The position numbers and the translations under genes are program-made. Below, in pieces: positions 1 to 57,084 of a stretch of DNA of 64,000 nt. The stretch is from Octopus vulgaris (lineage: Eukaryota), in the NCBI GenBank assembly GCA_951406725.2, contig OX597814.1:161882001-161946000 (forward strand), read 5' to 3'. Every line of letters starts with the position of its first letter. The first letter of the stretch is position 1. Under the pieces are notes generated by a model. The model was not told the origin of the DNA and did not search any database. It saw nothing but the letters and a program-made list of their open reading frames with translations.

Positions 1-9
1 TTCGTCGAG

Positions 10-83
10 GAAGCGGAGGCCTACCACACGCCGATGATAGGCAATACACCTTGAAACCATGGTCCGTGTGTGGTTTCCGCTTC
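10..83 (+). ncRNA. Type I hammerhead ribozyme-like motif (variant core), copy 1
   Basis: Helix I cacacg(25-30)/cgtgtg(65-70), extended by gaagcgga(10-17)/tccgcttc(76-83). Core ccgatga(31-37); helix II agg(39-41)/cct(49-51); gaaa(53-56); palindromic helix III accatggt(56-63); GUC triplet (62-64), predicted cleavage after 64. Confidence 0.8.
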
Positions 84-369
84 ATCGGGGAATTACCTCC
101 CTTTGCAGGTTTAGGGCACCGTGACGGTGTCGAGCCTTTCTGGTGACGTCGATGTTCGCCTGGGGCTAAATGCAACAGTAACACCCCCACCACCCTGCCC
201 TGTCCCTAGCCATATTCAGATGGCTTTAGTCCCTTATGTTGTCGAGCAGTTACTGTCTATATTCCTTTTAGAGAATTATTATTGCTTTCGAACAGATTTT
301 CGAAATCAGCAAATTTATTTTGCTTGAAAATCTATATAAGAAAATCCTGCAGAGAGAGAATTCGTCGAG

Positions 370-443
370 GAAGCGGAGGCCTACCACACGCCGATGATAG
401 GCAATACACCTTGAAACCATGGTCCGTGTGTGGTTTCCGCTTC
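370..443 (+). ncRNA. Type I hammerhead-like motif, copy 2
   Basis: Identical to 10-83, offset 360. Confidence 0.8.
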
Positions 444-729
444 ATCGGGGAATTACCTCCCTTTGCAGGTTTAGGGCACCGTGACGGTGTCGAGCCTTTC
501 TGGTGACGTCGATGTTCGCCTGGGGCTAAATGCAACAGTAACACCCCCACCACCCTGCCCTGTCCCTAGCCATATTCAGATGGCTTTAGTCCCTTATGTT
601 GTCGAGCAGTTACTGTCTATATTCCTTTTAGAGAATTATTATTGCTTTCGAACAGATTTTCGAAATCAGCAAATTTATTTTGCTTGAAAATCTATATAAG
701 AAAATCCTGCAGAGAGAGAATTCGTCGAG

Positions 730-803
730 GAAGCGGAGGCCTACCACACGCCGATGATAGGCAATACACCTTGAAACCATGGTCCGTGTGTGGTTTCCGC
801 TTC
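730..803 (+). ncRNA. Type I hammerhead-like motif, copy 3
   Basis: Identical to 10-83, offset 720. Confidence 0.8.
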
Positions 804-1089
804 ATCGGGGAATTACCTCCCTTTGCAGGTTTAGGGCACCGTGACGGTGTCGAGCCTTTCTGGTGACGTCGATGTTCGCCTGGGGCTAAATGCAACAGTA
901 ACACCCCCACCACCCTGCCCTGTCCCTAGCCATATTCAGATGGCTTTAGTCCCTTATGTTGTCGAGCAGTTACTGTCTATATTCCTTTTAGAGAATTATT
1001 ATTGCTTTCGAACAGATTTTCGAAATCAGCAAATTTATTTTGCTTGAAAATCTATATAAGAAAATCCTGCAGAGAGAGAATTCGTCGAG

Positions 1090-1163
1090 GAAGCGGAGGC
1101 CTACCACACGCCGATGATAGGCAATACACCTTGAAACCATGGTCCGTGTGTGGTTTCCGCTTC
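1090..1163 (+). ncRNA. Type I hammerhead-like motif, copy 4
   Basis: Identical to 10-83, offset 1080. Confidence 0.8.
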
Positions 1164-1449
1164 ATCGGGGAATTACCTCCCTTTGCAGGTTTAGGGCACC
1201 GTGACGGTGTCGAGCCTTTCTGGTGACGTCGATGTTCGCCTGGGGCTAAATGCAACAGTAACACCCCCACCACCCTGCCCTGTCCCTAGCCATATTCAGA
1301 TGGCTTTAGTCCCTTATGTTGTCGAGCAGTTACTGTCTATATTCCTTTTAGAGAATTATTATTGCTTTCGAACAGATTTTCGAAATCAGCAAATTTATTT
1401 TGCTTGAAAATCTATATAAGAAAATCCTGCAGAGAGAGAATTCGTCGAG

Positions 1450-1523
1450 GAAGCGGAGGCCTACCACACGCCGATGATAGGCAATACACCTTGAAACCAT
1501 GGTCCGTGTGTGGTTTCCGCTTC
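1450..1523 (+). ncRNA. Type I hammerhead-like motif, copy 5
   Basis: Identical to 10-83, offset 1440. Confidence 0.8.
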
Positions 1524-1809
1524 ATCGGGGAATTACCTCCCTTTGCAGGTTTAGGGCACCGTGACGGTGTCGAGCCTTTCTGGTGACGTCGATGTTCGCC
1601 TGGGGCTAAATGCAACAGTAACACCCCCACCACCCTGCCCTGTCCCTAGCCATATTCAGATGGCTTTAGTCCCTTATGTTGTCGAGCAGTTACTGTCTAT
1701 ATTCCTTTTAGAGAATTATTATTGCTTTCGAACAGATTTTCGAAATCAGCAAATTTATTTTGCTTGAAAATCTATATAAGAAAATCCTGCAGAGAGAGAA
1801 TTCGTCGAG

Positions 1810-1883
1810 GAAGCGGAGGCCTACCACACGCCGATGATAGGCAATACACCTTGAAACCATGGTCCGTGTGTGGTTTCCGCTTC
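1810..1883 (+). ncRNA. Type I hammerhead-like motif, copy 6
   Basis: Identical to 10-83, offset 1800. Confidence 0.8.
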
Positions 1884-2169
1884 ATCGGGGAATTACCTCC
1901 CTTTGCAGGTTTAGGGCACCGTGACGGTGTCGAGCCTTTCTGGTGACGTCGATGTTCGCCTGGGGCTAAATGCAACAGTAACACCCCCACCACCCTGCCC
2001 TGTCCCTAGCCATATTCAGATGGCTTTAGTCCCTTATGTTGTCGAGCAGTTACTGTCTATATTCCTTTTAGAGAATTATTATTGCTTTCGAACAGATTTT
2101 CGAAATCAGCAAATTTATTTTGCTTGAAAATCTATATAAGAAAATCCTGCAGAGAGAGAATTCGTCGAG

Positions 2170-2243
2170 GAAGCGGAGGCCTACCACACGCCGATGATAG
2201 GCAATACACCTTGAAACCATGGTCCGTGTGTGGTTTCCGCTTC
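2170..2243 (+). ncRNA. Type I hammerhead-like motif, copy 7
   Basis: Identical to 10-83, offset 2160. Confidence 0.8.
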
Positions 2244-2529
2244 ATCGGGGAATTACCTCCCTTTGCAGGTTTAGGGCACCGTGACGGTGTCGAGCCTTTC
2301 TGGTGACGTCGATGTTCGCCTGGGGCTAAATGCAACAGTAACACCCCCACCACCCTGCCCTGTCCCTAGCCATATTCAGATGGCTTTAGTCCCTTATGTT
2401 GTCGAGCAGTTACTGTCTATATTCCTTTTAGAGAATTATTATTGCTTTCGAACAGATTTTCGAAATCAGCAAATTTATTTTGCTTGAAAATCTATATAAG
2501 AAAATCCTGCAGAGAGAGAATTCGTCGAG

Positions 2530-2603
2530 GAAGCGGAGGCCTACCACACGCCGATGATAGGCAATACACCTTGAAACCATGGTCCGTGTGTGGTTTCCGC
2601 TTC
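2530..2603 (+). ncRNA. Type I hammerhead-like motif, copy 8 (in the truncated unit)
   Basis: Identical to 10-83, offset 2520. Confidence 0.8.
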
Positions 2604-2760
2604 ATCGGGGAATTACCTCCCTTTGCAGGTTTAGGGCACCGTGACGGTGTCGAGCCTTTCTGGTGACGTCGATGTTCGCCTGGGGCTAAATGCAACAGTA
2701 ACACCCCCACCACCCTGCCCTGTCCCTAGCCATATTCAGATGGCTTTAGTCCCTTATGTT

Positions 2761-3209: not shown

Positions 3210-4159
3210 ATCATCATCATCATCATCATTTAACGTCTGCTTTCCATGCTAGCACGGGTTGGACGGTTCAACTGGGGTCTGGGAAGCCCGAAGGCTGCAC
3301 CAGGCCAGTTAGATCTGGCAGTGTTTCTACAGCTGGATGCCCTTCCTAACGCCAACCACTCCGTGAGTGTAGTGGGTGCTTTTTATGTGCCACCGACACA
3401 GGTACCAGACGAGGCTGGCGAACGGCCACGCTCGGATGGTGCCTTTTATGTGCCACCGGCACGGAGGCCAGGTGAGGCTGGCAACGGCCACGATCGGATG
3501 GTGTTTGTTACATGCCACCAGCACGGAGGCCAGTCAGTGCGGTGCTGGGTACGGCCACGTTCGGATGGTTCTCTTATGTACCACCGGCACTGATACCACA
3601 ATTACAAATTCCATTGATGTTGATCGATTTCGATTTGATTTTTGATTTTCACTTGCCTCAACAGGTCTTTACAAGTAGAGTTATATGTCCCAAGAAGGAA
3701 GGTATGCACAGGTGGACTGACTACGTCCCAGGGAGGGGCCACGGGTTATGGCCTTACTTGTCCTGCCGGGTCTTCTCACGCACAGCATACTTCCAAAGGT
3801 CTCGGTCTCTGGTCATTTCCTCGGTGAGACCTAAAGAGCGAAGGTCGTGCTTCACCACCTCGTCCCAGGTTTTCCTGGGTCTACCTCTTCCACAGGTTCC
3901 CTCAACCGCTAGAGCGTGGGACTTTTTCACACAACTATCTTCATCCATTCTTACCACGTGTCCATACCAGTGTAGACATCTCTCTTGCACACCACAACTG
4001 ATGCTTCTTAGGTCCAACTTTTCTCTCAAGGCACTTACACTCTGTCGAGTATGAACACTGACATTACACATCCATTGGAGCATACTGGCTTCATTTCTTG
4101 CAAGCTTACGCATATCCTCCTGTCACAGCCCATGTTTCACTACCATGTAGCATGGCTGT

Positions 4160-16310: not shown

Positions 16311-16347
16311 GTCCTGATTGCTGCGTTTCGATCAGTTCTTTTTCGCT

Positions 16348-18222
16348 ATGGATTTGTCTGGTTGTCAGACCGGAGACGAGGAGATTTCGCTTGCCCTGAT
16401 TGTGGAGATGTTAAGGGGCCAGATGGCGCAGACGGACGCGTTCATGGAAAGGATGGACAAGAGGCGACGGGGCCTGTGGGCAGATCAGCGGGAGCTTGAG
16501 GTTGCGGATGGGTCAGCTTTGAAGGATCGGTGTTGGACCGAGGATAGCGACGGTCCTGTGGGCAGAGATTGCCCGTCGAACGAAGCATCGAGGGAAACAG
16601 ATAGTGAAGGAAGTGTTGCCGAAATCTGTGATGCTGGACCGGCTGTGTTTGTGGAACCTGGGCTGGTTGCCGAAATTTGTGACGCTGTACCCAAGAAATC
16701 TTGTGATTTGGAACCCGTAGAGGTTGAAGTAACCAAAAGGCCTGTGGAAGGTGTTATGGCTGATGCTGTTGTTCCGTGTCTGGAGCCCTTGGCATCTCGA
16801 CCCCTGTCTCTCGGAGCTCAGGATGAAGAGCTGGCGAGGTCTGGGGCGAATGTCGCTGAATCCGAGGTTCCGGCTCTGTGTGTGATGGTCGCGGCAGGTG
16901 TTGTGCCGTGTGCGAGTCCTTTGGTGTCTGGACCCCTGTCTCTTGGGGCCCAGAGGGACTGTATGGTTCCCACCGTGGAGAGGCCACAGGCGTGGATGGA
17001 CTGGCGGCCGAGCGTGCGTGTTGTGAGGCCTGCGGTACGGAAGCTGGTGAGGAAAAGGACCAGGCCCGTTGACGAGGCGAGACGGCTGCGAACGGTGGTG
17101 GGTCCACCGAGTCCAGGAAGTCTGCTTCAGCGTTGGGTGAGCTTTGTGGTTGATGGTTGCTTGGGGCCGGTGGAGCCCGACAGGCAGTGCCTAGTGAAAG
17201 CTCGATTGAGGGTCGGGTGGACCCTAGTGGAAGCAGAAGCTGGTGGAGCGCTGGCTGGGTCGGCCGATCTTTTGGAAGTGGCACAGGCGATTTGCAGAAG
17301 GCAAATCGAGGAATCGTGCCAGATGGCGAACCAGTGGTGGGGCCAGCTCTGCCGATACGGCAACGCAGTTGAAGGAGGTGGTGGCCCATAGATGCAGTTG
17401 AGGAAGCGGTCCGCAAGGAGTCGCTGGTGCTTTGTTGGCACTTGGGGGAGCTCTGTATTTGATGGTTGCGTGGGGCCGGTGGAGCCCGACATGCAGTGCG
17501 GAGTAAGAGCTCAATTGAGGGTCGGCTGGACCCTGGTGGAGGCAGAAGCTGACAGAGCGCTGGTTGGGTCGGCCGAGTTATTGAAGGCTGCGCAGGCAAT
17601 TTGCAGAGGGCAAATCGTGGAACTGCGGCGGATGGTAAACCAGCGGCGGGGTCAGTTCTGCCGGTGCAGTGATGAAGTTAAGGGAGATCGTGGTCCGCTG
17701 ATGCAGTTGCGGAAGAAGCAACCGTTGGTGAAAAGCGCAGGACGTTGGTCGCGAGGGTTGTTGGATGCTGGTCGCATGGACCTGGCAGAACGTTTCGTCG
17801 ACCAAGGCGGTTGTCGCTTGAGGAGGCAGCGAGGCCGGAGGAAGGTCTCAGTACAGCAGCGCAAGAGGAGATATTGGCGACAGGTAATAGTGAAAGGACA
17901 GAATGGTCCCTGGTCGTCAGCGATAATTGCGCGGAATGGGGATGGTACAGCAAGGTGCTGCGTGGGCTATAGAGCCCTGAGGAAGGTGGCCACTGTGAAG
18001 GATTGGCCGGACCCTGCCTGTGGAAGGGATTTGAGGAACTTCCTCGGACGGTGCGCCTATTGTGGGCGGCTAGTAGGAAGCCTGGCGGCATTGGCGGAGG
18101 TGTTACCCAAGCCGCAGAGGGAAGGTGCCAACCTGTGGCTGGTGCTGAAGTGGTGGCTGTGGGAGGTGAGACCCCCGGAGGAGAAGCCACCCAAGGGGAC
18201 CTCCAGTTCCTGGAACGTCTGA
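16348..18222 (+). pseudogene. Rearranged Gypsy gag/pol-derived ORF with one internal TAG at 17389-17391 and the RT core deleted
   Basis: Two track ORFs lie in the same frame (tag|atg). GPWSSAII.RNGDGTARCCVGYRAL resembles the Gypsy RT N-terminal motif and is fused to VKDWPDP...DLRNFLGRCAY (RT C-terminal/connection). No YxDD, RNase H or integrase. Confidence 0.75.
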
Positions 18223-20243
18223 TAGAGCTCGCCCTCGGAGCTGGGGGTTTGTTATGCTTTGTCGGGTCGACAAAAGCTTAGGTAGACAACAACTGAAGAA
18301 TGTGAACAGCCCTTTTTAAATGAGTTTCCACAAAGTTTCTGAAAATCAAATTTTGCTCACAAGGCTTTAGCTACCTTGATCCAATGACAGAAGAAACTTG
18401 CTCAAGGTGCAACATACTCCAACACAAACCTGAACCCACATTGTTCCAAAGCAAACTTCTTAACCCAGCTGACAGACCTGCATCCATATTATGCAACAAA
18501 TTAAGTTTAGAAATATCAATCTAGCTGAATGTTATTAAAACAAAAGCAAAATGACATAAAATAAGTTATATTCAAACCATATAATTTAATTTCGCAACTT
18601 TCAGGCAATTTTCAAAGGTAAGTAAATTCAACAACCTGATTGTTTTCTGTATTCATTGTAAAATTTATAGCATTAATTTGTTTATAGCAACCTCGTTATT
18701 TAACAACTTCTTATTAAATTACTGGAAAATATTTAGTTATCGAGATGAATTTAATTAACATCTAATGAGTAAATTATACAGAGTTTTTACAATGCAGGTA
18801 AACTTTAATGTTCAAAACTATAGAAAGTTAACATGAGAACATGTTATCCATGAATGTGATGGAGATGAAACCATCTGTGTATATACATATATATTATTTA
18901 TCCCTGTTGTTTTAAACCTTTCTTATACCCTGCACCCTCAGAAGGTGTTCGATTAATTTTCACACACCTTCAAAAGTAATATCATATTTGAAGATGAAAA
19001 AATTGAATTTTCTAATAACTAATTTATTCCTTTAAATTGAACTACATGCAGAATTGTAGGAGAACAAAGTGAACTAAAAAAAAATAATAGCATTTGACTT
19101 AGTGCAAATGTAAATTGAGCAATTAGAAAAAGAATAATTGATAAGGCTGAAATCAGTCATAATTGTGAGCATAAAATTCAAGACTTCTTTGTTCCTGCTT
19201 TCTGTTCCTAACTTTTATCAAATGGTGGAACTTTATTTTGTTGATTGTTTTCTGTAGGCTTGTCTGTGCATTGAAAAGTTACTAGGTTTTGTTTTGATTG
19301 ACAAAAAAGAACTAAATTCAAATTTACACAAATGGAATGAGAACATAGTTCTTCAGGGTTAAATCTCTATATGTAGGATAATAAAGTTTTAAGTGTGCTT
19401 AAAACAATAAAATCACTTTTAAGAGTTAGGTAATAATTTTTAATAATTTTTAGTAGATTATATATTCTTTATCTCTGCTGCACCCCTTGAAATACTGTTT
19501 GTACCCATCATCATACTTTTCAGGCACCCCAGATTACGAACCCCTAATCTAATCAAATCTGTACCACTGAGCTCTCCGAGTTGATTTGCCTTAACTCCTA
19601 TTTATTTTAATTACACACATTTCTTTTGACTAAGAATATCATCAACTCTCACTTGAATGTGTCAAATCTGGTTTGGACTCAAGATGGATAATACTATGCT
19701 GATGGTGTCCATTTAGGCAGAAACATATACCCAAAGCTGACTTCTTGTCACTGAAACAAAAATTACATTATCTTTTTCTCCTAGCAAGTTAATCCAATGA
19801 GAAGTATTTTTCACGGAATTATCTACCCTTCTCATTCAAAGTTGCTAACAATCCCCACTAGGTTTATGTTTACTGTCAGCATAAGAAAATTCTATAAATT
19901 AGAATTTATTTTCCACAGTGTTTTTTTTTTTATGAGCAGTGCTTGATTTATTATTTTGTTTGCTATTGAAAGAGACAACAAAGTTGGCACAATTTCATTG
20001 GAGGATGCTCTCAGTATCATTGTTTATGGAGTCAATGCAAGTTTGGCACATGTATCTAGATTGTGAGTGGATTATACATGTTTAGGGAAGGTTAGGGAGG
20101 AAGGAGGGAAAGAAGGATTGTGTTATCTGTGTAAGAGTGAATGTTGTTGGATATGGTGGTAAGCTGGTTGCTGATGTAGAGAAAGAAAAGAGGGAGAGAC
20201 AGAACTGAATTCTGGGGATGATCAGAGTTGATTGAAAATGGAA

Positions 20244-44229: not shown

Positions 44230-44910
44230 TAGGAATGAGCAAAGGAAATAGATGTAGGAACATTAAGGGAAGTCAACCGAAATACTACACCAGACTTAAA
44301 TATACTCCCATACATCTCCACCCATAACCCTAGAAACAACAAAGCCTTTAACATTATCACCCAAAATCTATCCATTCTCACAGGAGATAAAACAATGAAC
44401 AAAATTTTAGGCTCACACAAAATTATCAAGAGCAAAATGCAACTGAAATCATTGAAAAAATATTAACCAATGCAAGACTATATCCATTAACAACGGAACC
44501 AAAAGTGAAAAAATGCTTTTGACCTAACTGTGGAACATGTCCCCAACGTTTTGGAGGGTACAGAATTCCACTTTAAACAGGGTGAAATATTTATGATTAA
44601 ATCAAAATTCACCTGTGCCTCGGAAAACCTAATCTATGCCCTTACCTGCTTAAGGTGCGGTAATCAAAATATTGGCCAAACAGGAATATCACTCCGTCAA
44701 AGATCCACTCTTCACAAAGAACAAATCCACCACCCACAATACAGACAGATACAGGTCAGTGAACACATAGATAGGTGTGCTAGGAACCTTAATCCTAATT
44801 TCCTAATTTTCCCCTTCTATTAATGTTCACAGAACACCTCAGTACAACAAAGAATGAATAAAGAAGCAACTTTCATCAATAAATATCATCTACAACTTAA
44901 CATGAACACA
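44230..44910 (+). pseudogene. Penelope-like element fragment with a GIY-YIG endonuclease
   Basis: FTCASENLIYALTCLRCGNQNIGQTGISLRQRSTLHKEQI...VSEH is a PLE GIY-YIG with Cys/His motif; upstream LPYISTHNP linker; frameshifted. Confidence 0.85.
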
Positions 44911-53446: not shown

Positions 53447-55908
53447 ATATCATCATCATCATCATCATCATCATCGTTTAACATCCGTTTTCTGCGCTAG
53501 CACAGGTTGGACGGTTCGACCGGGGTCTGGGAAGCCAGGGGCTGCACCAGGTTCCAGTCTGATCTGGCAGTGTTTCTACAGCTGGATGCTCTTCCTAATG
53601 CCAACCACTCTGCGAGTGTAGTGGGTGCTTTTTACGTGCCACCTGCACAGGTGCCAGGTGAGTCTGGCATTGGCCACAATCGATTGGTGCTTTTAACATG
53701 CCACCGGCATGGAAGCCAGCCAAGGCGTCGCTGGCATCGGCCACGTTCGGATGGTGCTTTTTATGTGCTACCGGCACAGAAGCCAGTCAAGGCGGCGCTG
53801 ACATCGGCCACGTTTGGATGGTGCTTTTTATGTGCCACTGGCACAGGTATCAGAACTACTATTTCCATTGATATTTGTTTCGATGTTCATGTACATGCAC
53901 TTGACTCAACAGGTCTCCTCAAGCACAGCGAGATGTTCTGGGAGATGAATGGGCAGGGGCTATGCGGAACTGGTGCCGGAAGCATCCCAGGTCTTTGCAG
54001 TCACAGCACATCTCCAGAGATCTCGGTCCTTCGCCATTGCCTCAGTGAGGCCCAACGCTCTGAGGTCATGCTTGACTACCTCATCCCATGTCTTCCTGGG
54101 TCTACCTCTCCCCCTGATTCCTTCAACTGTTTGGGAGCGGCACTTCTTCACACATCTCTCCTCATCCATCCGCAGTACATGACCATACCATCACAAGCGT
54201 CGCTTTTGCACACTGCATCTGATGCTTCTTATGTCTAGCATTTCTCTCAGGGTGCTTACACTCTGTCGTGCATTCACACTGACATTACACATCCAGCGGA
54301 TCATGCTAGCTTCATTTCTTTCAAGTCTACGCATGTCCTCTGCAGTCATGGCCCATGTTTCACTACCGTGAAGCATGGCAGTTCGCACACATGCATCATA
54401 CAATCTACCTTTCACTCTGAGTGAGAGACCCTTTGTCGCCAGTAGGGGTAGGAGCTTTCTAAACTTTGCCCAGGCTAATCGTATTCTAGTGGTGACACTC
54501 TCTGAGCATCCACCTCCACTACTAACTTGGTCACTCAGGTAGCGGAAACTATCAACTACTTCTAGTTTCTCTCCCTGGAGTATGATGGAATCTGTTTCCT
54601 GAGTATTTGTGGTGTCTATTGTCCCTGTACATCTGCCGCACATGAAAGCTATCTTATCAGTTAATTTCCCTTTGATGTTGCTGTACCTCTTATGCATCCA
54701 TAGCTTACACTGGGTGCATCTTATGGAGTTTCTACCTACACCTTTCCTACAGATCGAGCAGGGCCACCTGCCCGATGGGGTGTGTGCTGAGTTTGCCTTT
54801 CTGCTTACTATAACTTTGGTCTTCGCTACATTTACTCTAAGGCCCTTTGATTCTAACCCTTGTTTCCACACCCGAAATTTCTTTTCTAGTTCCGGTAGTG
54901 ATTCTGCTATGAGAGCCAGGTCATCAGCATAGAGGAGCACCCAGGGGCAACCTGTTTTTAAATTCCTCTGTTATTGCCTGGAGGACTATGATGAATAAAA
55001 GGGGACTGAGGGCTGAGCCTTGGTGTACACCTACTTCTACCCGGAATTCTTCACTATATTCGTTGCCAATCCTAACCTTGCTGACAGCCTCTCTGTATAG
55101 GGCCTGTACAGCCCTTATTAGCCATTCGTCAATCTCCAGTTTCCGCATCGACCACCAGATAAGGGATCAGAGGACCCTGTCAAAGGCTTTCTCCAAGTCC
55201 ACAAAAGCTATGTAGAGGGGTTTATCTTTAGCTAGGTACTTCTCCTGCAGTTGTCGGACCAGGAATATAACATCAGAGGTGCTTCTACCCGGCACAAAAC
55301 CGAACTGCATCTCATCTAAGCAAATTCTCTCCCTAATGAGATGGGTTATGACCCTCTCTGTGACCTTCATCACCTGATCCAACAGTTTAATACCCCTGTA
55401 GTTATTTCTATCTAGAGCATCACCCTTACCCTTGTAGCAGTTGACTATGGTGCTGCTACGCCAGTCATTAGGTATGACTCCATTATGAACTACCTGGTTT
55501 ACAATACGGGTGACTAGGCCATAGCCCACATAACCAGCTGTTTTAAGCATCTCAGCAGTGATACCTGATGGGTCGGGGGCTTTACCTGGTTTCATACCCT
55601 TAATTGCCTTAACTACAAGGGAGCTGTCTATTTGGATAGCTGGTCCCTTTACTGGGTCAACATTTGGCAGGCTCTCCTCCTCCCATTCATTCTCCACATT
55701 CAGCAGTCTTTCATAATGGCTTCTCCAAGCCTCTTTCTTTCCACCAACATTAAAAGCAAGTTCCCCATCATCCATGCGGACACATTTCTCTCCTGTAACA
55801 TCACTATTTTCTCTCACACACTGTTTAGCAATCCGAAATACCTCAGTTCTTCGGTCCTCACGTTGCTGGACATTGGCAAACTTCTTCTTTTCTGCTATAT
55901 CTTTGGCT
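53447..55908 (-). mobile_element. RTE LINE, 5'-truncated, with an RT pseudogene
   Basis: KAPDPSG, NYRGIKLL, QFGFVPGRST, FVDLEKAFDRV, GVHQGSALSPLLF, LLYADDL and GRGRPRKTW. Stops near 55167 and 54191 and a frameshift near 54940-54960. Confidence 0.96.
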
Positions 55909-55944
55909 ATGTATATATATATATCATCATCATCATCACCATCG

Positions 55945-55996
<52 letters not shown>

Positions 55997-57084
55997 AGAG
56001 AGAGAAAGAGAGAGTGCACAAAGAACTTGCTCAACTTCTTGACTGGTATATTAATTATTGATTCTCAAAAGGATGAAAAGTAAAGTTGAGTTTGGTAGGA
56101 TTTGAACTCAGAACCGGAACAAATATCACAACGTATTCTATTTGATGCCCTGACAATCAAAATTTCAAGAAAAATATATTTACTTATATTTTAATGATGT
56201 TAAAATTAAAAATTTTAATGATGTTTAAAATTATAAAAAAAAAAGGTAGCTTTTTAATAAATAACTGCTGCAATAAATAAAATAAATAAATTCAGTAAAA
56301 TATTACATAATAATGTTTGCATGATAAACTTCCAGAAGGTTCTTTTAATAAAAGAGAAGAAACAAAAAATATTTAGAGAAACAAGATGAAATATATATCT
56401 AATTTTACTTATGCTAATGGAAAAGTTATAAAAAGTTTATTCTTCATAACTAGGTAAATCTAGAAATAGCTCGATATTTAGAAATGCATAGTTTTAAAGT
56501 ATTGAAAAAAAAAAAAGAGAAGATATGATCCCTGGGGGTGATAAGCTATTGCAGTAACTTGAAAAATGAACCACTGTTACTAAGTGGTTTGAAGTCATGC
56601 TGCTGCTATGAAATAAAGATTGTTCTTGGCAAAAAATATAAGCTTTTTTCTATTGAGATGAGAGTAATGTTTTCACTGACAATGATTCTGGTCGGCAGCT
56701 TCTAAGAAGTTTTTCCAATTTAGCTTGGATAAAAGTAAGCTGTTTATTGACATGTTGCTTCATTGCACAATATGCTATTTATCTATGGCAGAAGATGTTG
56801 TTTTGCACTTTGGCTTCCACAGACAGAATTGTGTGCTCATAAGCATACAGATTAGATAATATTTTATCGTGATTCAAATATTAAAGTCAATGCATTATAT
56901 TCAAATACTAACCACTGACATAGCATTAATGTCAAAATAACAAAAAAAAAATTTTTTAAATTGCACAGATTATAACATAAGAATTACGTACATCTTAATG
57001 TATACAAAAATAAATGCATTTAATAAATAATAATGCATTCAAATCATTTTTTTCCCATTGCTTTTATCATACTTGTCAGTGTCA

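Follow-up and report, generated by a model that had tools for sequence, protein, structure and literature searches.

Results

A 360-bp tandem array in the window is one arm of an inverted insertion

The window analysed here is a 64,000-nucleotide stretch of the 2.8-Gb Octopus vulgaris genome, starting at G000:C1:161882001 (contig OX597814.1). Its first 2,760 nucleotides form a tandem array with a period of 360 bp, for which TRF gives 7.7 copies with 100% matches over positions 1-2760, in good agreement with the earlier note's count of at least 7.7 identical units. Taken whole, the insertion at this locus joins a 14.7-unit arm on the minus strand (approximately G000:C1:161876435-161881738, upstream of the window and together with the junction) to an 8.4-unit arm on the plus strand, of which positions 1-2760 are the visible part, with the 3' ends of both arms facing outward. 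The outer ends of the arms fall at different places in the unit, at position 286 for the left arm and at 240 for the right; the latter, the short end, occupies positions 2746-2760 on the plus strand. An (AT)n microsatellite, the target of the insertion, lies on either side: at 2761-2787 on the right and as a matching tract that borders the left arm. The earlier note had described the 360-bp array correctly and missed both the upstream inverted arm and the 46-nt 'tail' (unit positions 241-286, plus strand) that separates the two fixed 3' ends, 240 and 286. By analogy with biochemical work on Penelope-like elements (PLEs; PMC11167929), and from the genomic junctions, we read this tail as the stretch between two internal reverse-transcription start sites.

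The unit has the hallmarks of a non-coding element. All six frames contain stops (2-9 per turn) and none stays open round the 360 bp, the longest stop-free run being 98 codons, in keeping with the earlier note's description of short open reading frames. An ORF for reverse transcriptase (RT) plus GIY-YIG is absent from the unit, no PLE protein match was found inside any retrozyme insertion searched, and no LTR-like layout was seen in the insertions. The G+C content is 168/360, under 50% as is typical of retrozymes; the unit length, 360 bp here and 352 bp in sister family B, lies in the retrozyme range of approximately 150-450 bp, and target duplications exceed 4 bp. A hairpin at 208-225 (plus strand), approximately 15 nt before the short end, is kept in family B and altered in families C-E, and is a candidate recognition element for the helper RT. 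A TATA-like box at 333-340 (plus strand), a candidate internal promoter, precedes the outer stem described below by approximately 25 nt.

Elsewhere in the window, positions 44245-44901 hold a PLE fragment that is 46% identical to the protein of PLE-B, one of the resident elements described below. Frames that by eye are LINE reverse transcriptase-like lie at 54191-56030 and 3476-4150, near 62-67 bp tandem repeats, and the GC-rich region 16318-18277 contains a number of long frames as well as a duplication of 309 bp (17133-17715).

Each unit carries a type I hammerhead fold with a variant core

A type I hammerhead fold (25-70, plus strand) recurs every 360 bp. It is built of helix I (25-30/65-70), the core CCGAUGA (31-37), helix II (39-41/49-51) with U38·U52 unpaired at its base, GAAA (53-56), a palindromic CCAUGG helix III (57-62) and a GUC that ends at C64. 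All hammerhead elements proposed earlier, including the outer stem 10-17/76-83, are at the positions claimed for them. The long outer stem that extends helix I (approximately 1-21 with 71-92, within 1-92, plus strand) has a different sequence in family B and pairs there as well. Our first reading of it, taken from locus L141, turned out to be an inversion junction, and the true stem was read from L166. The predicted site of self-cleavage and re-ligation, positioned by the hammerhead consensus, follows C64 in every unit (64/65, +360n, plus strand).

The core CCGAUGA is in place as claimed, and its departure from consensus had not been flagged. Measured against CUGANGA/GAAA/UH, it has C for U4, and the U·U replaces the usual G10.1-C11.1 pair; the rest is present. 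Rfam, a check that the earlier note had proposed, missed the hammerhead: there was no match at the gathering score across the window, and no ribozyme family or known RNA at E<=10 on positions 181-720. The fold itself is far more stable than expected by chance. The 95-nt hammerhead region reaches -42.2 kcal/mol (z=-5.0; 0/200 shuffles as stable), and the circular monomer also folds far more stably than its shuffles (z=-4.2). The fold that is competent as a hammerhead is 7.4 kcal/mol less stable than the one of minimum energy.

Covariation, likewise proposed as a check on helices I-III, supports the structure. Families A-E, of which family A is the 360-bp family, share the hammerhead and downstream motifs; the four further families B-E were found at L014:253-305, L116:8794-8845, L058-L073 and L154-L183, with 2,043 first-look candidates for family B. 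In 23 aligned cores from these five families, 94% of cells are paired and 12/14 pairs show two-sided changes, a score that counts cells and not independent events. The observed value was reached by 0/500 shuffles, and slid alignments pair at 29-38%. The core 3-8 pair covaries as C-G, U-A and U·G. Helix III varies in sequence and yet is palindromic in every family. Its energy is -12.6 kcal/mol as a duplex vs +2.2 as a hairpin, so that it is stable only as an intermolecular duplex, which fits cleavage as a dimer, as reported for axolotl retrozymes (PMC7229834).

Genome-wide, family A has 1,219 hammerhead copies with a C4 core and 347 with a U4 core. Some successful subfamilies, intermediate ones, have a U3·G8 wobble, and all three core variants of the family (U3-A8, U3·G8 and C3-G8 with C4) have spread genome-wide. 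The combination of C3 with U4 is missing from the 100 matches listed out of 347, which suggests that the two positions, 3 and 4, changed jointly. The order of these changes is suggestive only, as a tree of 25 units has no outgroup and few supported forks. A U4C hammerhead is reported to be weak in vitro, and yet a viroid bearing U4C is infectious (PMC3088659). Judged by its core, the octopus ribozyme may have low or tuned-down activity.

The insertion footprint is of Penelope type

The insertion in the window is one of a family of more than 500. Exact junctions with (AT)n number 535 at the 240-end and 770 at the 286-end genome-wide, vs 0 for a control pattern. Among the first 66 240-ends listed, 43 are paired with a 286-end that diverges from them at a distance of at most 15 kb, one has a partner on the same strand and 22 have no exact partner; convergent or same-type end pairs were not seen in this set within that distance. 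When 17 'unpaired' loci were fetched, 12 turned out to have two arms, one with a short and one with a long end of variant sequence, four were one-armed and one was unmatched. Similarly, 20 of the 26 top-matching loci are two-armed, each with one short (~240) and one long (~286) end, and the other six are one-armed. Sister family B has the same paired ends and inversion. Target duplications of approximately 10-15 bp are visible at four sites outside pure (AT)n (L034, L057, L163 and L169).

The footprint, i.e. the 46-nt offset, the inversion, the (AT)n target and the 10-15 bp duplications, is by analogy of PLE type, and each mark of PLE mobilisation is present: a tail on one end, an inverted 5'-truncated arm and an AT-rich/(TA)n target. 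Since two fixed 3' ends, inverted arms, an (AT)n target and target duplications all point to a PLE as the helper, the family is very probably a retrozyme mobilised by a PLE. The proposal of a non-LTR retrozyme served by an RT in trans thus gains support from the ends, arms, target and duplications.

Identity of 100% and an inverted junction are also typical of fold-back reads and collapsed repeats. That the insertions are such assembly or sequencing artefacts is nevertheless next to inconceivable: the left and right flanks differ, target duplications are present, individual loci have private variants, and the ends fall at two fixed positions in hundreds of loci.

Variants, crossings and stops suggest a probable circular template

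To what template the arms correspond was assessed on 43 paired loci (86 arms), which had been selected because both ends were present. Within an insertion the two arms differ at 30/8,809 sites vs 2.3% between loci. A genome-wide search for three array-fixed variants placed each of them at a single locus, where they are present in 9/9, 8/8 and 12/12 units, respectively; two of these three locus-private variants are present in both arms. The remaining array substitutions are mostly scattered (42 singleton vs 4 shared-minority), and such scattered variants are almost never common to both arms over approximately 48 overlapping units. The predicted cut site at 64/65 is crossed 275 times in genomic copies with 0 indels at 62-67; 54/86 arms reach it and one stops there (2.6 expected). 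In the putative start zone one stop is seen where 5.7 are expected, and the 5' ends of the 86 arms do not pile up anywhere that a transcript might begin. These results have to be read with the caveats that junction processing could blur run-off ends and that source arrays may be missing from a single assembly.

From these sequence comparisons we consider a circular monomer the likely template. A single circle copied from two primers would account for all of the template results together, and the arrays appear to have been made at insertion. We rejected one candidate line of evidence for the circle, a 390-nt contig equal to one closed unit among the contigs of four runs, because a tandem array gives the same and the run is only presumed to be RNA.

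A different template could serve the same PLE insertion, namely a linear multimer that was transcribed from an array already present and was not cleaved, with the ribozyme weak or acting at a later step. Uncleaved RNA is the dominant in vitro substrate of an anole PLE (PMC11167929), and seamless crossing of the cut site is expected from such a template too. The attenuated core (C4, and an active fold 7.4 kcal/mol above the minimum) would suit it, as would L047/048, in which each arm has one deviating unit, offset by one, and L115, a mixed array in which three-change and one-change units are scattered across both arms. Against it, a new variant starts in one unit, so filling the 8-12 units of both arms requires a one-unit bottleneck, and 3/3 variants have no other carrier in the assembly. 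The near absence of scattered variants common to both arms and the lack of a 5'-end pile-up at a possible transcript start speak in the same direction. We consider the linear multimer unlikely, and the most serious of the competitors to the circle.

The arrays could also have begun as short PLE-made insertions that were later grown by unequal exchange and homogenised by gene conversion, the satellite route of Li et al. 2026. Tandem 360-bp units are able to recombine, gene conversion could have produced the mixed units of L115 as tracts, and the median arm lengths, 311 and 321 nt, are under one unit. However, the longest arrays are found in the tip subfamily, whereas older TT-core copies are seen short; the variants are singletons and not blocks (42 vs 4); and the arm lengths of an insertion correlate (rho 0.57, p 8e-5). 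Growth in place is quite improbable on this evidence.

Still less probable is the copying of linear self-cleaved monomers by repeated end-to-end template jumping. It would account for the mixed units of L115 and for L051 (G000:C3:139.86 Mb), whose arms differ at one site. A linear monomer should, however, end copying at base 65, and one stop in 54 reaching arms speaks against this. Over the 275 crossings the 64/65 joint shows neither an accumulation of stops nor gained or lost bases, and most arrays hold one haplotype. As a separate observation, L051 departs from other arrays in that its junction-adjacent units show numerous small deletions and a patchwork of pieces.

Where the two arms meet, 20/43 junctions overlap by at least two bases vs 16% by chance, i.e. 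microhomology is above the null.

The octopus genome contains young Penelope-like elements

The genome contains young GIY-YIG PLEs, for which 150 of 6,136 candidates were scored. PLE-A, a 4,271-bp unit, has a 454-aa frame and an intact 775-aa RT/zinc-finger/GIY-YIG ORF, and PLE-B has an intact 781-aa ORF; both match the RVT_1 and GIY-YIG domains. Their zinc-finger linker, judged by the motif in Craig 2021, suggests the Neptune type. PLE-A has six inverted insertions in (AT)n, each pairing a short with a long end, and PLE-B likewise has inverted, two-ended (AT)n insertions at three loci. The PLE-A hammerhead shares the C4 and U·U features of the 360-bp retrozyme; relatives of PLE-B have a hammerhead core with U3-A8, a variant reported by Cervera and de la Peña 2014.

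The unit has no sequence homology to PLE-A or PLE-B beyond ribozyme type, and none to the pLTR of the PLE loci fetched. A search of PLE loci for the conserved motif of the retrozyme superfamily gave matches only in neighbouring retrozyme copies. A match at L107:5771-5817, at first taken for an autonomous PLE tail, belongs to sister family B, of which it is a separate copy. With no homology beyond ribozyme type between the unit and these PLEs, and with 150/6,136 candidates scored, PLE-A and PLE-B are candidate helpers.

Several observations on the resident elements are of interest in their own right. PLE-B (tail of L097) and older retrozyme tails (L133, families B and E) have a small hairpin of similar sequence that precedes the long end by 13-17 nt and is altered in the youngest retrozyme subfamily; this is a weak hint at PLE-B as the helper. 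At L119/L143 and at L117, a retrozyme and a PLE-A copy lie in one (AT)n tract, i.e. in a common target. Full-length PLE-A also occurs in head-to-tail arrays of 2.1-2.5 units at G000:C1:27.84-27.85 Mb (L134, L135) and C1:38.87-38.89 Mb (L136, L137), with identical units in one and six common differences in the other, as if autonomous PLE-A, too, were copied from a 4,271-nt circle. A protein search with PLE-A found bivalve relatives and no cephalopod among the 120 matches listed. Several close relatives are labelled as proteins of bacterial symbionts of bivalves and are probably host DNA in those assemblies.

Locus-private variants are skewed towards A>G

Thirty-five fixed differences separate arrays from their nearest loci, of which we kept the 20 that occur in at most one other locus and dropped 15 as subfamily-level. 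Among the private fixed variants, A>G accounts for 7/20 (9/22 when two edge sites are included), G>A for 6/20 and C>T for 0/20. The 146 scattered singletons comprise 10 A>G, 31 C>T and 31 G>A, so the private variants are enriched in A>G (p=0.001). With 31 C>T and 31 G>A, the singletons are strand-symmetric, as expected for DNA mutation. A strand test of A>G vs T>C on the private variants was not significant (p=0.20 and 0.08).

Cephalopods edit RNA heavily, and we regard the skew as a lead for A-to-I editing of a structured RNA that was then written into DNA; the same skew could come from selection on structure. Were it editing, RNA edits would be inherited via a mobile circle. Editing has been raised for mussel circles that match no genomic copy (Cervera 2020, PMC7229834).

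Discussion

A proposed insertion cycle

In this study we have described a two-armed insertion of a 360-bp hammerhead repeat. Our main reading, to which we give a probability of about 70% on genomic evidence, is that of a young non-LTR retrozyme whose monomeric RNA circle is copied by rolling-circle reverse transcription by a Neptune-like PLE at both ends of a cut target. In the cycle that we propose, arrays would be transcribed and the hammerhead, probably as a dimer via the palindromic helix III, would cut the transcript into 360-nt monomers, which would then be ligated to circles. The PLE protein would make a staggered cut in (AT)n, and each of the two 3' ends would prime synthesis on one and the same circle, from unit position 240 in one case and from 286 in the other. 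Copying from either primer would proceed round the circle until it stalls, and the two cDNAs, often joined at microhomology, would form the two diverging tandem arms. A further-reaching reading takes the insertions as a genomic record of single circles, copied by a PLE dimer from both ends and carrying A-to-I edits in the germline; we offer it tentatively and consider it doubtful as a whole.

Comparison with known systems

Non-LTR retrozymes and a proposed link to PLEs were known already. Metazoan non-LTR retrozymes (coral, mussel with 350-390 bp, axolotl; Cervera and de la Peña 2020, PMC7229834) share with the octopus family a non-coding short tandem unit with G+C below 50% and one type I hammerhead per unit with a weak palindromic helix III. 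The axolotl ribozyme HHR_Amex2 also has the U·U at the base of helix II. The circle as a proposed intermediate and a PLE as the proposed helper are common ground. The octopus family differs in its C4 core, and its inverted arms, tail and microsatellite target are features that the main text of that paper does not describe. The same text mentions neither 'inverted' nor 'cephalopod', and the supplement may list such repeats; a 2020 review describes retrozyme repeats as lacking a motif that would reveal the helper.

A recent preprint derives retrozymes from PLE pLTRs and ties retrozyme to PLEs in one genome (Li, Clavereau, Pollet 2026, bioRxiv 10.64898/2026.07.22.740005). Its case is drawn from vertebrates, where retrozymes co-occur with PLEs and show pLTR homology, and it proposes that tandems arise by local amplification, whereas our link is the insertion footprint, with no pLTR homology found in the PLE loci fetched. 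The words 'tail', 'target site', 'mollusc' and 'cephalopod' do not occur in the text of the preprint. Of the Xenopus retrozyme dimers reported there, only 1/9 cleaves in vitro.

On the side of the helper, PLEs have been described as targeting (TA)n and as having a 5'-truncated copy in inverted orientation, with a tail of 30-40 bp at one of the two ends (Craig et al. 2021). A PLE protein cuts and extends both strands, using two internal RNA start sites with the tail between them (Frangieh 2024, PMC11167929); in the same system ribozyme mutants of the anole PLE inserted normally in vitro. EN+ PLEs (Neptune, Poseidon, Naiad) thus share with the octopus family the inverted truncated copy, the one-ended tail, the AT-rich/(TA)n target and two RT starts. 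In contrast to them, the octopus family has no ORF, its tail measures 46 nt vs 30-40 nt, and an arm can comprise as many as 15 units. In non-autonomous Chlamys PLEs such as MRC1 the 3' end is similar to that of the helper, which is not so for the 360-bp unit, and Chlamys and Naiad elements are described as without hammerheads, whereas the 360-bp unit has one (Craig 2021; PMC9940879).

Our literature search, which left Repbase, most subscription papers and supplements outside its scope, found no cephalopod retrozyme and no PLE tails or inverted arms in retrozymes, and a 2026 octopus repeat annotation, in its text and one supplement, does not mention a ribozyme. What the sequences suggest as new is PLE-driven, two-primer, probably rolling-circle insertion, read from the footprints of retrozyme insertions. 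For animal retrozymes, which enzyme acts as helper and what part the RNA circle plays have so far been proposals, and the footprint described here is direct. With the two putative start sites named, it is clear how a resident PLE protein could be tested in vitro on a 360-nt circle. Finally, the strict pairing of one short with one long end limits the ways in which a PLE protein could employ its two start sites.
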